Positions 19,702-57,468 are shown, counted from the stretch's first letter. The stretch: 64,000 bases of DNA from an uncultured Moraxellaceae bacterium (GCA_964373105.1 CAYJTU010000001.1:5217-69216), one strand, 5' to 3'. Translations and numbers: made by a program. The notes: generated by a model not told the origin, from the letters alone.

Positions 19702-21234
19702 ATGAAGTTATCAGTCGGACTGAGAGTCTCAAGCTCGTTATCGCTTACCCCCCAATTGCAGCAGGCGATCCGCCTCCTGCAACTCTCGTCACTTGAGCTC
19801 GAACAAGAAATCCAAAATCAGCTCGATAGTAATCCGCTTCTTGAGGCAGTAGATGCCTCTCCAGAAGGTCAAGCCTCTGACTCTTTAGATAATAATGTTG
19901 ATTATCAGTCGACAGAACAATCCTCTGATTACGATTCACAAAGTGATTTTCAAGACAGCGCGGTATCCGATGGTGCGTCTTCAGTTGCATTAGATGAGCA
20001 GATGGGTTTGACCCGTTTGGGGGAAGACCTACCGGTCGATACCCAGTGGGATGACGTGTTTAGTCATCAATCGACAGCGCTGGCTTCCCCTGAATTTGAT
20101 GAGCGGGAAGATACGCGGACGGTCAGTGATTCGATTTGGTCTGAATTGCGCTGGCAGTTGAACCTCACGCCATTTAGTCCGGTAGATCGGATTATGGCGG
20201 AGTGCATTATTGATGGGATTGATGAGCGTGGCTATCTAGAAGCCAGCTTAGAAGAGTTGCTTGAAGCAACCCAGAATCAACTCGATGCACTGGATCTGGA
20301 CATCGAAGAAGTCGAGCTCTCCGAGCTCGAAGTGGTTTTAAAGCGGATTCAGAATTTTGACCCTCCGGGTGTGGGCGCCCGTGACTTGAGCGAATGTCTC
20401 TGCTTACAACTACGCGCGCTGCCTGAGCATACGCCTTCGCGCCGGGATGCCCTGAATATGATGGCGCATCATGAATTATTGCTGATCAATGATATCCCGA
20501 AGCTGATGCGTCAAACGGGTTTGGATCAAGATGAGCTGCGCTCTGCCTTGGCGTTGGTGAAGTCTTTAGATCCTTATCCTGGTTTGAAGTTTCAAAACAA
20601 TGAACGTGAGCATCAAGTCCCTGATGTGATTGTTCGTAAGAAAAATGATCATTGGGAAGTGCAGCTCAACACTGATATTTTGCCCAAACTACGCGTCAAT
20701 TCCTATTACGCCAGCATGATCAAACGTGCCGACCAAAGTGAAGAAAATCAATATTTGCGCTCCCACATGCAAGAGGCGCGGAATTTTATCAAAAGTGTCG
20801 ATGAACGACATAAGACTTTACTGAAAGTATCGACGTGTATCGTTCAGCACCAGCGTGCCTTTCTTGAGCATGGTCCAGAGGCCATGAAACCCTTGATTTT
20901 GCGCGATATTGCTTTGGAAACGGAGCTGCATGAGTCGACGGTATCACGGGTTACTACGCAAAAATTCCTATTGACCCCGCGGGGCTTATTTGAGCTCAAA
21001 TATTTCTTTTCCAGCCATGTGGCGACCAGTACAGGTGGCGAGTGTTCATCGACCGCGATTCGCGCGATGATCAAGAAGATGGTTGCGGATGAGAATGTCA
21101 AAAAACCATTATCAGATAATGCATTGACCGAAAAGTTACATGAGGCGGGAATTGATGTGGCGCGCCGGACGGTTGCTAAGTATCGCGAGTCGCTGAATAT
21201 TGCGTCATCCAGCGAGCGTAAACGCTTACTGTAA
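19702..21234 (+). CDS. rpoN: RNA polymerase sigma-54 factor
   Basis: N-terminal LTPQLQQAIRLLQL, LHESTVSR and RpoN box ARRTVAKYRE. Confidence 0.98.
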   Translation: MKLSVGLRVSSSLSLTPQLQQAIRLLQLSSLELEQEIQNQLDSNPLLEAVDASPEGQASDSLDNNVDYQSTEQSSDYDSQSDFQDSAVSDGASSVALDEQMGLTRLGEDLPVDTQWDDVFSHQSTALASPEFDEREDTRTVSDSIWSELRWQLNLTPFSPVDRIMAECIIDGIDERGYLEASLEELLEATQNQLDALDLDIEEVELSELEVVLKRIQNFDPPGVGARDLSECLCLQLRALPEHTPSRRDALNMMAHHELLLINDIPKLMRQTGLDQDELRSALALVKSLDPYPGLKFQNNEREHQVPDVIVRKKNDHWEVQLNTDILPKLRVNSYYASMIKRADQSEENQYLRSHMQEARNFIKSVDERHKTLLKVSTCIVQHQRAFLEHGPEAMKPLILRDIALETELHESTVSRVTTQKFLLTPRGLFELKYFFSSHVATSTGGECSSTAIRAMIKKMVADENVKKPLSDNALTEKLHEAGIDVARRTVAKYRESLNIASSSERKRLL

Positions 21235-53947: not shown

Positions 53948-54125
53948 AAAAAGAAGTAGGTTTTTTTAAAATAGTTTATAAAGTCGTCTTTTATTGTTTT
54001 AAGAGTTATTTTTTTGCTTTAAAGATTTATTTTTATTGATAAAAATAAATCCTCAAGCAGTAGCGTCACCACTTGAGGATTCTGTGTACTTTTCGTTATC
54101 TAGACAAACCCAAGCGAGATCAAGA

Positions 54126-55124
54126 TTATTTGCCGTGCACCACGTTAGGATCAATGAAGCTGTCTGCATTGAGCAGTTGCTTATACGCCCCAGTGGTGAC
54201 GTTGAATTGGTTGACGAAATAGGTCGAACCATAGATCGAATCAAACCCTTTGCCTTTGACCATGGCTTTTTGATTGGCCGCCAGATCCAGCAAATGGGTG
54301 CCGTTCAAGAAACGTAAATAGGTTGCGGGGGCGACACCGACGCGACCTGACATGATCCGCACTGCATCGGGCTGTGTTTTAGGGTCGTGGATGTACTTCA
54401 CCACGCGGTCCCATACCTTGGTCATCTTGATCCAATCGGCACGTTTTGTCGCAAGACTGGTCGGATTGACGGCGATGCCGTCATAGATCAGCCCCGGTGC
54501 ATCTGCGGAGGTATAGAGCGGGTGAGAGCCAGCCACCGCTTTGAGGGTTTGGTTGGCAACAGGTTGCCAGACCGCGACCGCAGCAACGCTTCCTGAGGCG
54601 AGAATTTGTGGCAGTTCGTTGGTTTTGCCATTGACCAGTTTGACCGAAGATTCAGGAACACCGTATTTTTTGAGGGCGTTGACCAGTAACAAGTGATCAA
54701 CCAATCCGCGTTCCACACCCACGGACTTGCCCGCTAAATCTTTAATGGACTTAATCGCTGGTGTGCCGATGACCATGTCATTGCCACTCGAGTAGTCGGT
54801 CAGCAAGACCATGACGCCTTTGGTGCCGCCCGCGCCTGTGACTAACATATCGCCATTGGTTGCGGCGACGGCATCAAGCTTGCCAGCGGCAAAGGCATCC
54901 AGTGAGGCAGAGTAGTCAAACCATTGAAACGAGGCATCGACGCCTGCTTCTTTCAGCCAGCCTTTATCGATGGCAATTTGCCAAGCGACAAAGCCGGGCC
55001 AATCGCTATAGCCAATTTTCAACGGTGCGGCTTGGGCAACGGATGTCAGCAGTCCAGCTGCGGTGAGTACAAGCCCTGCAACCGCAGTGCGTTTGATGAA
55101 GCGTTGAGTCAATGATGTCTTCAT
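54126..55124 (-). CDS. ABC transporter substrate-binding protein (SsuA/NMT1/THI5-like)
   Basis: Signal peptide; IGYSDWPGFVAW, DYSSGND, DLAGKSVGVE, PGLIYD. Confidence 0.85.
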   Translation of the reverse strand: MKTSLTQRFIKRTAVAGLVLTAAGLLTSVAQAAPLKIGYSDWPGFVAWQIAIDKGWLKEAGVDASFQWFDYSASLDAFAAGKLDAVAATNGDMLVTGAGGTKGVMVLLTDYSSGNDMVIGTPAIKSIKDLAGKSVGVERGLVDHLLLVNALKKYGVPESSVKLVNGKTNELPQILASGSVAAVAVWQPVANQTLKAVAGSHPLYTSADAPGLIYDGIAVNPTSLATKRADWIKMTKVWDRVVKYIHDPKTQPDAVRIMSGRVGVAPATYLRFLNGTHLLDLAANQKAMVKGKGFDSIYGSTYFVNQFNVTTGAYKQLLNADSFIDPNVVHGK

Positions 55125-55225
55125 GATGTTTCCCCGTGAATTAACATTTAAAAAAGTGAATCGTTTTTACAGTGCTGGTAACGTGCTGTGTTGCATGGTG
55201 GTTCAAAAAAATGCATATGCTGGTC

Positions 55226-56305
55226 TTAAACTTTGTGTTCCGATGGACCAAAGGAGTTGAGTGGTCGTGCTTGCTGAGCCAATGTCAGTGTGCCGCTCTT
55301 CAGCCGTGCCTTGAGATAGCCAAAGCTTTGCGCCGTCTGGGCAAACAGATGCTCACCGGCGTTCAGCGCTGGATATTTTTGCATCGTATCTGGCGTTGCA
55401 AAAGCGGGTAAAGGTTGTACGCGGGTATGGTAGTTACAGCCAAAAAACAGCGGAAATGAATAGCGCTCAGTACTGACCTTACGCACCCGATGAGCGGTGG
55501 CGACAAACGTACCCCCACTCCAGATCTCCATGAGATCGCCGATATTGACGATAAAGGCATCCTCCATGGGCGGCGCATCAATCCATTTGCCTTCGCCATT
55601 GACCACTTCTAGTCCCGGCGCAGTGGGCAACAAAATAGTGAAGCACTCATAGTCTGTGTGCGCACCGATGCCTGGGCTATCACTGGCGCTGGCATCAAAT
55701 GGGTAGTGAATCAGACGTAATTGGGACGTGGGATTTTTGATAAAGCCATCCAGCGCATCTTCGGCTAGCCCGAGTGCGAGTGCAAAACCGTGTAAAAGGG
55801 TTTGACCCAATGCAAAGGCTGCTTGGTAATAGGTGCTGATCGCTGCTGCAAAGCCTTCCTGTTCCGGCCAGATATTGAGCCCATGCATCGGCGTCCCTGC
55901 AATCACATCAGGATCATCGACTGAATGCTCAAAGCCCAAATCAAAAGCTTCCTTACGATCGTGCTTGCCAGTGGCGAAGACTTCTTCCCCTTCAGGCACA
56001 TAACCTCTATGCGCTAGATTTCCTGAATTGCCGATGTAGTAGCGCATTTTTTCAGTCAAAGGTAGATCGAAGAAATCTCGGGTTTGCGCAATCAAGTGGC
56101 TGCGCATTAATCTGGATACGGCATGGCCTGTGATATAGAAAAATCCCACTTCACGTGCGGCTTTACCAAGGGCTTCTGCGGTGTGGAGGCGAACGGAAAG
56201 ATCAGGACTGTATAACCCTGAAATATCAATAATCGGTAATTGATCGAAATGATGCGATGTTGGTGGCGCGGTTGTTGGTGAATGTGTTGCTGGTGCATGG
56301 TACAT
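55226..56305 (-). CDS. 2-oxoglutarate/Fe(II) dioxygenase, isopenicillin N synthase-like (start MYHAP at 56305)
   Basis: LPIIDIS, GFFYITGH, HTD...H iron triad (GAHTDY, TAHRV), RYS 2OG-binding motif. Confidence 0.92.
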   Translation of the reverse strand: MYHAPATHSPTTAPPTSHHFDQLPIIDISGLYSPDLSVRLHTAEALGKAAREVGFFYITGHAVSRLMRSHLIAQTRDFFDLPLTEKMRYYIGNSGNLAHRGYVPEGEEVFATGKHDRKEAFDLGFEHSVDDPDVIAGTPMHGLNIWPEQEGFAAAISTYYQAAFALGQTLLHGFALALGLAEDALDGFIKNPTSQLRLIHYPFDASASDSPGIGAHTDYECFTILLPTAPGLEVVNGEGKWIDAPPMEDAFIVNIGDLMEIWSGGTFVATAHRVRKVSTERYSFPLFFGCNYHTRVQPLPAFATPDTMQKYPALNAGEHLFAQTAQSFGYLKARLKSGTLTLAQQARPLNSFGPSEHKV

Positions 56306-56326
56306 GGCGTAAACACTCAGACTGAA

Positions 56327-56376
56327 TCTGGTCGTCCAGAAAAAGTAAGCACCATGATGTTTGGGTCGTCCCAAAC
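56327..56376 (-). ncRNA. Guanidine-II (mini-ykkC) riboswitch
   Basis: Two hairpins with ACGA tetraloops, GUUUGGG-ACGA-CCCAAAC (56376-56359) and UCUGG-ACGA-CCAGA (56340-56327), an 18-nt linker, ending about 21 nt before the ATG. Confidence 0.85.
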
Positions 56377-56433
56377 GGTGGGTTATCGATAACGCGTGAA
56401 GTACGCTATAAACAAATCATTAATCATTATAAA

Positions 56434-56449
56434 AGCAAAGGACATGCCA
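56434..56449 (-). promoter_or_regulatory. Sigma-54 (-24/-12) promoter of the dioxygenase-SBP unit
   Basis: TGGCATGTCCTTTGCT: GG-N10-GC, close to TGGCAC-N5-TTGCW. Confidence 0.8.
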
Positions 56450-56488
56450 TTTTATAAAAATGAATGCGAATCAATGCTGTGACAAAAT

Positions 56489-57360
56489 TTAAGCAATGCT
56501 GGATTCCGCGCGCTGTAAAAAAGCACTGTCATGGTGCGAAAAATGCACTTTTTCGGTGTCTCCGATCCAGCGATTCATCTGCCAAATGTCAGCCACCTGT
56601 TCGCCTGTAAAGGGGATTTGATGGGTATAACCATCAGGACCACACTCCGGTGTCATCGTACTGATTTGATAGCCTTGCGCGCGCTGTGCATCCCAGATGG
56701 CTTCCCAGCAGCGCTGGTGCGATGCGAGACAATCCGCATAAGCGGGGTCTGCAGGATGGGGTACTTGCGGGCCTTGCGGATAGCCGATTCGCCCATGGAC
56801 ATGATGACCGTGCGGGGCAAGTTCAAGGATCGTCTCCCACTCACTGTCCATCAGTCGCTCGGAAACCACGACCCAATGGCTAAAATCACAGGTGAGTTTC
56901 AGGCTGGGGACTTGACGCACGACATCACGAGTGACCCATGGATTGAAAAAAGAACGGCCGCGATGGGTCTCAAAACTACAGATCACGCCGTGTTTGTCCG
57001 CGATATCGACAGCTCGTGAGAAAAAGTCAATTTGCTGATCCAGTGACCAGGCGTCACAACCCGCCATCACATTAAAAAAGCGTGGTTTCAGGTCTTTGCC
57101 ATTGATGATTTTTTCTTCAAGATCAGTAAGGTGATCGGCGATGGTGGCATTGCGCTCAGGAACGTAACTGCCTGCCGTACAGATCTCAGCGATGAGCCCT
57201 AGACCGGATTCGGCGACTTCAATTGCAAAGCGCTCACGGGTCTTAGGATCATGCGGAATCGGGGCTTCAATGCCATCGAATTTGGCCGCGCGAACCATGC
57301 TAAAGGCTTCGGATAGTGGTCCGTTAAAGCCCCAGAAGGTTTTATACAGTTGTAGTTTCA
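56489..57360 (-). CDS. Sugar-phosphate isomerase/epimerase-like TIM-barrel protein (xylose isomerase-like); start MKLQL at 57360
   Basis: FDGIE, FETHRGR, LTCDFSHW, HVHGRIG and TPECG metal-site-like motifs. Confidence 0.8.
56522..56560. promoter_or_regulatory. Tandem NtrC-like enhancer sites
   Basis: AGCACTGTCATGGTGCG (56522-56538) and TGCACTTTTTCGGTGTC (56544-56560) versus TGCACCA-N3-TGGTGCA; about 108 and 130 bp upstream of the inferred start site. Confidence 0.6.
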
Positions 57361-57395
57361 TACGAGAACTCACAAGGTGGATGGAGTCTATATCC

Positions 57396-57411
57396 AGCAA
57401 GTTCTGTACCA
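57396..57411 (-). promoter_or_regulatory. Sigma-54 promoter of the TIM-barrel gene
   Basis: TGGTACAGAACTTGCT: GG-N10-GC, about 36 bp upstream of the ATG at 57360. Confidence 0.7.
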
Positions 57412-57468
57412 TCGGCTTTTTGAGAGTGTTTTAAGAGTGGTTTTAAGCAGGGCTTTTGCGATGCGAAT

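Follow-up and report, generated by a model that had tools for sequence, protein, structure and literature searches.

What does a TIM-barrel enzyme contribute to guanidine metabolism when its gene lies directly upstream of a riboswitch-controlled oxygenase gene? The question is raised by a locus in a 64,000-nucleotide stretch of DNA (the window) from an uncultured Moraxellaceae bacterium (GCA_964373105.1, CAYJTU010000001.1:5217-69216), in which three co-oriented minus-strand genes within 54.0-57.4 kb encode a TIM-barrel protein, a 2-oxoglutarate (2OG)/Fe(II) dioxygenase and a periplasmic substrate-binding protein (SBP). An earlier note, made from the window sequence alone, had described these three co-oriented genes together with two sigma-54 promoters and a guanidine-II riboswitch, and all of them were recovered where it had placed them, on the minus strand. 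The note had read the locus as a nitrogen-scavenging module for a substituted guanidine, and our analysis supports this. We propose that the locus is probably the split-off front end of a guanidine pathway, which turns methylguanidine or a close N-alkylguanidine into guanidine, with the TIM barrel replacing the lyase MgdL. The closest public homologues of the genome assembly, which is 95% complete, carry the label Aquirhabdus sp.

The dioxygenase belongs to the MgdH family

The dioxygenase gene (55226-56305, minus strand) encodes a 359-residue protein of the isopenicillin-N-synthase type with the DIOX_N + 2OG-FeII_Oxy architecture (PF14226, 99 bits; PF03171, 76 bits). NCBIfam holds no model for this protein and none for the TIM barrel. 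The dioxygenase is 55% identical over 334 residues to MgdH of Vreelandella boliviensis, whose locus was recovered by way of the MgdL sequence printed in the supplement of PMC12508155. The two enzymes are reciprocal best matches, with the next V. boliviensis paralogue being 42% identical. When aligned with MgdH, the iron triad HxD...H and the 2OG motif RxS are invariant (H216, D218, H272 and R281), and the residues flanking the iron ligands, HTDYECFT, are the same in both enzymes. The comparison shows the gene to be an orthologue of MgdH.

MgdH of V. boliviensis is a 2OG dioxygenase that hydroxylates methylguanidine and N,N-dimethylguanidine (Sinn et al., Nat Commun 2025, PMC12508155). In a substrate screen that included guanidine, arginine, homoarginine and creatine, oxygen was consumed with methylguanidine and dimethylguanidine only (PMC12508155). 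The product N-(hydroxymethyl)guanidine is unusually stable; this hemiaminal decays spontaneously with a half-life above 1 h, and it is cleaved to guanidine and formaldehyde by MgdL, a beta-barrel protein with the catalytic residues D49 and R51 (PMC12508155). MgdL is narrowly specific and is inactive on hydroxylated dimethylguanidine, while the guanidine-II riboswitch of V. boliviensis binds guanidine and methylguanidine equally well and does not sense dimethylguanidine (PMC12508155). The chemistry of methylguanidine hydroxylation and the idea of a dioxygenase coupled to a riboswitch are already known, and the earlier note was right to caution that riboswitch-linked dioxygenases might have been described. 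Its guess that the dioxygenase dealkylates a substituted guanidine is borne out by the reciprocal best match to MgdH. Judged from sequence, the window enzyme most likely hydroxylates, and so dealkylates, methylguanidine.

Alternatively, arginine or homoarginine could be the source from which the dioxygenase makes guanidine, in the manner of the ethylene-forming enzyme or the plant enzyme 2-ODD-C23; the riboswitch would then provide product feedback. Guanidine-releasing hydroxylases are known in the dioxygenase superfamily, and the best PDB sequence match of the window enzyme is 9ovh, named 2-oxoglutarate-dependent ethylene/succinate-forming enzyme (E 1e-64), but MgdH is a much closer relative and uses no arginine, homoarginine, creatine or guanidine. 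The genomic company of the locus, namely uptake and guanidine degradation under nitrogen-limitation control, also argues for catabolism. A guanidine producer resembling the ethylene-forming enzyme was rejected on the closer relationship to MgdH and the negative substrate screen of the latter, and we give production from arginine or homoarginine hardly any chance.

The TIM-barrel gene and MgdL occur as alternatives

The TIM-barrel gene occupies an open reading frame at 56489-57412 on the minus strand, with a likely coding sequence at 56489-57361, and its product matches PF01261 with 42.6 bits (cut-off 31.1). Neither a single-sequence search (E up to 10) nor a profile search found an MgdL homologue in the genome assembly. 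We fetched 80 metagenome loci with the dioxygenase as sole bait and scored the neighbouring genes by tblastn. Among the 53 loci with full flanks, the TIM gene stands immediately upstream of the MgdH-family gene and on the same strand in 37, MgdL is found in 10, neither is found in 6, and no locus has both (0/53). Counting all loci with flanks gives the same picture (TIM immediately upstream in 44/76, MgdL in 22/76, both in 0/76). The alternation extends to whole-genome searches, in which TIM was present and MgdL absent in our genome, in an Aquirhabdus sp. (G302) and in P. fungorum (G303), whereas TIM was absent and MgdL present in V. boliviensis (G301), Jiella (G304) and a member of the Methylophilaceae (G305). 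Paraburkholderia places the TIM-dioxygenase pair directly before a guanidine-I riboswitch, cgdAB, gca and genes for a permease and an ATPase. In Jiella and a Methylophilaceae metagenome-assembled genome, MgdL homologues (30-32% identity) and guanidine-I riboswitches are found with the dioxygenase gene instead.

The earlier note had taken the TIM barrel for an isomerase-like enzyme performing an unknown companion step. The partnership with the dioxygenase holds; a specific kinship with isomerases was not found. Because the TIM barrel is a conserved partner of the MgdH family that excludes MgdL, its role would lie after hydroxylation, and we infer that it processes the hydroxylated intermediate in the place of MgdL. 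The TIM protein has no homology to MgdL and the folds differ (TIM barrel against beta-barrel); any equivalence between the two would be functional and not a matter of family membership.

The TIM and oxygenase genes are strictly adjacent and point the same way, often ~10 nt apart; MgdL is strictly excluded at both locus and genome level; and the family follows an oxygenase of either type, 2OG-dependent or membrane di-iron. These observations tell against a second explanation, under which the TIM barrel is co-regulated with the dioxygenase but acts outside demethylation, on carbon that is derived from formaldehyde or related to 2OG or succinate, or ahead of the oxygenase in making its substrate, while the hemiaminal decays spontaneously. 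Such an enzyme would agree with the self-decay of the hemiaminal, with the 6 loci that have neither TIM nor MgdL, with a TIM gene that has its own promoter and no riboswitch, and with fold relatives that are isomerases, epimerases and dehydratases. Weighing both sides, we consider a role outside demethylation distinctly unlikely, and the replacement of MgdL by the TIM barrel is preferred.

As a separate observation, the Methylophilaceae locus (L026) contains two guanidine-I riboswitches at the head of two adjacent units, FA_desaturase-MBL-MgdH-EamA and MgdL-SBP-permease-ATPase-creatininase-GS-like, forming a compact island that unites most of the modules scattered in other loci.

Structure and wider distribution of the TIM-barrel family

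The AlphaFold model of the TIM protein has a mean predicted local distance difference test score (pLDDT) of 91.3, and its top 40 PDB fold matches all belong to the xylose isomerase-like superfamily. The closest folds are those of ketose 3-epimerases and UlaE, and also IolI and AsbF, but the resemblance is remote, at a template modelling (TM) score of ~0.6 and 11-17% identity. A PDB search with the single TIM sequence returned no match, and a search with the TIM profile returned one marginal match, Art22 (E 0.02). Four residues, E131, D159, H187 and E239, are invariant in the family alignment and are located in the model at the ends of successive strands, which is the position of the metal site in the xylose isomerase-like superfamily. 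The family shares with the PF01261 superfamily (ketose 3-epimerases, UlaE, IolI, AsbF and the C-glycoside deglycosidase DgpBC) both the eight-stranded barrel and the four invariant acidic/histidine residues at the strand ends. It differs from that superfamily in that it has no sugar-related genomic context and always stands beside an oxygenase.

The TIM family reaches beyond MgdH. A class-level sample of 300 genomes, too sparse for co-occurrence statistics, contained the TIM barrel in 8 genomes and an MgdH-like gene in 3. Six of the 7 other TIM-positive genomes have no MgdH-like gene, which rules out a strict dependency of the TIM barrel on MgdH. In these MgdH-less genomes, and also in Halopseudomonas and Pseudomonas cavernae, the TIM gene lies directly beside a gene for an FA_desaturase-like membrane di-iron oxygenase, and some of these loci also encode an NMT1-type ATP-binding cassette (ABC) transporter. 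The TIM proteins of these loci are 50-62% identical to that of the window, compared with 38-47% for the TIM proteins of the all-TIM dioxygenase clade described below. Since the TIM gene sits by 2OG or by membrane di-iron oxygenases, the family appears to be a companion of oxygenases whatever their type. The surroundings of the di-iron oxygenase loci (L028, L029, L031, L116 and L117) vary: rubredoxin and rubredoxin reductase genes follow in P. cavernae, a Rieske oxygenase gene follows in G176, and genes for NMT1-type ABC transporters, creatininase, a GS-like ligase, GATase and NikR-like proteins are often close by.

Phylogeny of the dioxygenases and the question of the substrate

We constructed a maximum-likelihood tree of 94 dioxygenases, for which a midpoint root was used for drawing only. 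One group of 39 rows is entirely TIM-linked and is associated with amino-acid-type SBPs, fused permease-ATPases and often an arginase-family ureohydrolase. The other group, of 55 rows, holds the characterised MgdH, NMT1-type transporters and Gca or GdmH pathways. The window enzyme falls within the 55-row group, in a different sub-clade from MgdH. This is a 15-row clade (support 97/95) that also contains the TIM-linked enzymes of Paraburkholderia, the MgdL-linked Methylophilaceae enzyme (L026) and the window genome's own paralogue.

The same pathway logic might serve another substrate, such as dimethylguanidine, a longer N-alkyl guanidine or a guanidino acid, with the TIM barrel performing a follow-up reaction of which MgdL is incapable (isomerisation, dehydration or elimination). 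The TIM-linked dioxygenases do form sub-clades of their own, yet the closest non-TIM relative of the window enzyme (L026) is MgdL-linked. Amino-acid-type SBPs, ureohydrolases, an aldolase and a 2-hydroxyacid dehydrogenase go with the large all-TIM clade, whereas NMT1-type importers and cgdAB-gca accompany the window enzyme and its relatives in Paraburkholderia, as they do MgdH. A different substrate would also suit the narrowness of MgdL, which does not act on hydroxylated dimethylguanidine, but guanidine-II senses guanidine and methylguanidine and not dimethylguanidine. The SBP of the window is of another subfamily (25-31% identity) than the SBPs of the Jiella MgdL locus and the Bryobacteraceae GdmH locus, while the HTDYECFT residues beside the iron ligands are identical to those of MgdH. 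We regard another substrate as rather unlikely, and continue to favour methylguanidine or a close N-alkylguanidine.

The large sister clade (L032, L068, L111 and ~35 other metagenome loci) deserves mention in its own right. Here the TIM gene is always upstream of the dioxygenase gene, and an amino-acid-type SBP and a fused permease-ATPase are encoded downstream, often together with an arginase-family ureohydrolase, a class II aldolase, a 2-hydroxyacid dehydrogenase and a LysR regulator. Such loci have the look of a pathway, as yet undescribed, whose substrate is an amino-acid-like guanidino compound.

A guanidine-II riboswitch precedes the dioxygenase gene

The TIM-dioxygenase-SBP triad recurs in three orthologous loci (L018, L020 and L022), each with different genomic surroundings, and these loci are 93%, 74% and 72% identical to the window at the protein level. 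A guanidine-II (mini-ykkC) riboswitch (RF01068) is located at 56327-56377 on the minus strand, where a 4-kb search with permissive filters gave a match of 28.2 bits (E 0.007). A scan of the whole window with Rfam at the gathering threshold returned no RNA match. The alignment is full-length (model positions 1-48) and ends 22 nt before the dioxygenase ATG, and the two hairpins, P1 (GUUUGGG-ACGA-CCCAAAC) and P2 (UCUGG-ACGA-CCAGA), each carry an ACGA loop. This element is the top RF01068 candidate of the 3.6-Mb genome, and the second, at 23.3 bits, is the copy in front of a dioxygenase paralogue on contig C40; each of the two lies 25-40 nt upstream of an MgdH-family paralogue. The motif is kept in L018, L020 and L022. 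A comparison of few sequences also revealed compensatory changes in both stems, with UCUGG/CCAGA in P2 of the window against CUUGG/CCAAG in the paralogue, and UUUGGG/CCCAAA in P1 of the window against CUCGGG/CCCGA in a metagenomic relative (L101). Because of the genome-wide ranking, the conservation in orthologues and the compensatory stem changes, we find the assignment as a guanidine-II riboswitch convincing. A chance pair of hairpins was considered and rejected on ranking and conservation.

In the minimum-free-energy fold, whose z-score is weak, the linker CAUGGUG pairs with the CGCCAUG start region. The conserved linker parts CAUGGUG and UACUU pair in this fold with the start codon and the Shine-Dalgarno-like GAGUG, which fits a translational ON switch. 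In common with other RF01068 riboswitches, the window copy has two short ACGA-loop hairpins and an 18-nt linker and is directly 5' of the start codon, the layout to be expected of a translational ON switch. In contrast to them, it controls an oxygenase and not an SMR exporter or carboxylase, scores just below the gathering threshold and lies downstream of a sigma-54 promoter. Elsewhere, in the metagenome loci L101 and L102, a guanidine-II motif is directly 5' of a divergent MgdH-family gene that has neither TIM barrel nor MgdL; this gene is oriented divergently from an SBP-cgdAB-gca unit, with a second guanidine-II before that gca.

Sigma-54 promoters and an NtrC-like site

The dioxygenase-SBP operon is preceded by a predicted sigma-54 -24/-12 promoter, TGGCATGTCCTTTGCT (56434-56449, minus strand), which has one mismatch to the consensus and one variable base across four orthologous loci with diverged flanks. 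A second such promoter, TGGTACAGAACTTGCT (57396-57411, minus strand), precedes the TIM gene and has one mismatch to TGGCAC-N5-TTGCW. In L018, L020 and L022, whose upstream genes are wholly different, it is kept 51-62 nt before the TIM gene in the form TGGTA[CT]A[GA]AACTTGCT. As TGGTACAGAACTTGCT overlaps the first ATG of the long TIM open reading frame, translation most likely starts at the ATG at 57361 (290 residues), and the orthologues are called likewise. A palindrome of the NtrC type, GCACCATGACAGTGC (GCAC-N7-GTGC; 56523-56537, minus strand), is a putative enhancer ~90-100 nt upstream of the dioxygenase promoter. Its half-sites are kept in L018, L020 and L022 and its spacer varies; it lies inside the 3' end of the TIM coding sequence, which encodes the variable C-terminal tail of the protein. 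The sigma-54 promoters and the NtrC-like site of the earlier note thus survive comparison with orthologous loci.

The machinery to read these elements is encoded in the genome, which contains rpoN and genes for five sigma-54 activators (bacterial enhancer-binding proteins). The rpoN gene is inside the window itself, at ~20.7-21.2 kb (about 20749-21225, plus strand; Sigma54_DBD domain, 221.7 bits). Exact TGGCAY-N5-TTGCW sites number 27 genome-wide. One of them, TGGCATATCCTTTGCT, is near-identical to the dioxygenase promoter and precedes a paralogous ABC operon on contig C125. By eye, sigma-54-like elements are also seen 5' of the guanidine-I/gca operon and of the C40 dioxygenase paralogue. Upstream of the TIM gene, a sigma-54 element was found in 3 of 48 scanned TIM loci (L018, L020 and L022 only), which are the closest loci, so the sigma-54 wiring of the TIM gene is specific to this lineage. 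A literature search combining sigma-54 with guanidine-II returned nothing.

The binding protein and the remainder of the pathway

The SBP gene (54126-55124, minus strand) encodes a 332-residue NMT1/SsuA-type periplasmic protein with a signal peptide (PF09084 and PF13379). No permease or ATPase gene adjoins it. Against TIGR03427 (ABC_peri_uca), the protein scores 112.9 bits, below the equivalog cut-off of 333.9 bits. Its identity to the SBP under guanidine-I control in a Paraburkholderia gca locus is 65%, and by sequence it is placed in a separate NMT1-type subfamily common to such loci, different from that of the SBPs of the MgdL-containing Jiella locus and the Bryobacteraceae GdmH locus.

The Paraburkholderia-type gca loci (for example L024, from P. 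fungorum), which are uncharacterised, contain the TIM barrel, dioxygenase, guanidine-I riboswitch, cgdAB, gca, permease and ATPase, with a divergent guanidine-I-controlled SBP gene. The TIM-dioxygenase pair is 66-68% identical to that of the window, and the SBP (65%), permease (70%) and ATPase (68%) belong to the same subfamilies as their counterparts in our genome. The arrangements differ in that all of these genes are in one locus in Paraburkholderia, where a riboswitch dedicated to the TIM-dioxygenase pair is lacking and the scan upstream of the TIM gene gave no sigma-54 promoter.

In our genome, the corresponding genes are spread over several contigs. On contig C45, a canonical guanidine-I riboswitch (78.6 bits) heads cgdA-cgdB-gca-atzF, whose Gca shares 55% identity with its V. 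boliviensis counterpart. The earlier note had stated that no carboxylase or hydrolase is in the window, which is true; the carboxylase pathway is on C45. On contig C125, the genes for a permease, an ATPase and a NikR-like regulator come after that for an SBP 71% identical to the window SBP; the permease and ATPase are ~70% identical to those of Paraburkholderia gca operons. The genome also encodes a glutathione-dependent formaldehyde dehydrogenase (AdhC) and an S-formylglutathione hydrolase (FghA). A view of the module as self-contained or without a sink is corrected by the guanidine-I/cgdAB-gca-atzF operon of C45 and the ABC importer of C125: the window module is the detached front end of a complete guanidine assimilation system, whose downstream part is assigned by comparison with known operons.

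Comparison with V. boliviensis shows what is shared and what is not. Both systems have an orthologous dioxygenase with the same catalytic motifs, control by a guanidine riboswitch and NMT1-type ABC uptake, and in both the guanidine would feed a guanidine-I-controlled cgdAB-gca-atzF pathway in the same genome. However, the genome studied here has no MgdL, and an unrelated TIM-barrel gene adjoins the dioxygenase gene. Its guanidine-II riboswitch is directly 5' of the dioxygenase gene and not of gca, the module is physically apart from the carboxylase operon and from the permease and ATPase genes, and promoters of the sigma-54/NtrC type are stacked on the riboswitch. The genome further has a second riboswitch-controlled dioxygenase paralogue, and the host is non-halophilic and of Moraxellaceae type (Aquirhabdus).

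That second MgdH-family paralogue lies on contig C40 behind its own guanidine-II motif (L017:3391-5487, minus strand) and is preceded by the sigma-54-like TGGTCTGATTTTTGCT. Its identity to the window enzyme is 58%, the residues beside its iron ligands read HTDMELFT and not HTDYECFT, and it forms a very long branch. A Vgb-lyase/YncE-like beta-propeller of 324 residues is encoded after it, and the pair recurs in a 64%-identical relative (L113). We considered the beta-propeller as a third type of lyase and set this aside, as the pairing is found only in close relatives and distant propellers occur in unrelated contexts. The C125 operon (L016:809-4374) ends with the gene for the NikR-like regulator (RHH + NikR_C), and a NikR-like gene accompanies the C125-type transporter also in L029 and L056.

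A strong intrinsic terminator of the dioxygenase-SBP transcript (54047-54082, minus strand) is predicted from a 16-pair stem followed by ATTTTTAT, a T-run. The flanking genes are unrelated: the upstream one encodes a Dus-family dihydrouridine synthase, the downstream one a protein with a fasciclin domain.

Discussion

Together, these observations suggest the following model. Under nitrogen limitation, sigma-54 and an NtrC-type activator would transcribe the TIM gene and, separately, the dioxygenase-SBP operon. The guanidine-II riboswitch would additionally gate translation of the dioxygenase, with methylguanidine or guanidine opening it. The exported SBP would capture the substrate and probably pass it to the permease and ATPase of C125, whose operon has a near-identical sigma-54 promoter. 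The MgdH-type dioxygenase would then hydroxylate the N-methyl group to give N-(hydroxymethyl)guanidine, and the TIM barrel, predicted to be metal-dependent, would speed the breakdown of this hemiaminal to guanidine and formaldehyde in place of the absent MgdL. Guanidine would switch on the guanidine-I-controlled cgdAB-gca-atzF operon of C45, leading to the release of ammonium, and formaldehyde would go to the glutathione-dependent dehydrogenase.

Several points weigh against this model. An identity of 55% is insufficient to fix the substrate specificity of the dioxygenase, and MgdH itself also takes dimethylguanidine. The TIM barrel and MgdL have no kinship in sequence or fold, the nearest structures to the former being sugar epimerases at a TM score of ~0.6, and the TIM gene is outside riboswitch control. 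The SBP is only a distant relative of the model linked to urea/guanidine carboxylase, and its partner permease is assumed. The guanidine-II score is under the Rfam gathering threshold (28.2 against 32 bits). Lastly, the alternation between TIM and MgdL, real as it is, rests on few independent switches in the tree, namely one large all-TIM clade and one TIM sub-clade within the MgdL-rich group, and part of the complementarity could reflect lineage rather than function. The transporters of the all-TIM clade are of the amino-acid type, and a ureohydrolase is often used there too, so the substrate of the ancestral TIM-dioxygenase pair may be another guanidino compound.

A broader generalisation can be offered, which we hold tentatively and with some doubt. 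The TIM protein might be a hitherto unrecognised, metal-dependent carbinolamine (N-hydroxymethyl) lyase, equivalent to MgdL without homology, that acts as a general finishing enzyme for oxidative guanidine N-dealkylation and is interchangeable among 2OG, membrane di-iron (AlkB/desaturase-like) and Rieske oxygenases. MgdH-type demethylation would then reach far beyond the halophiles from which it was described, and would include a large clade that works on amino-acid-like guanidino compounds.

A literature search combining the TIM barrel with guanidine returned nothing. As far as the searchable literature shows, three features are undescribed: a conserved TIM-barrel partner to the exclusion of MgdL, an MgdH family of this breadth that divides into two clades, and the wiring of sigma-54 promoters with a riboswitch. 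The stacking of a sigma-54/NtrC promoter, which responds to nitrogen status, on a translational riboswitch, which responds to the presence of substrate, amounts to a natural two-input gate of simple design. The first description of methylguanidine demethylation dates only from 2025 and concerns a few halophiles, in which the unusual stability of the hemiaminal made a dedicated lyase necessary. The MgdH-type hydroxylase family is widespread in soil and freshwater Proteobacteria, and most of its members have no MgdL and carry the TIM enzyme in the same position. If the TIM enzyme does the job of the lyase, the case would be a clean non-homologous replacement, and a familiar fold would have a new activity; with any other role, the enzyme would mark an undescribed step in guanidine metabolism.

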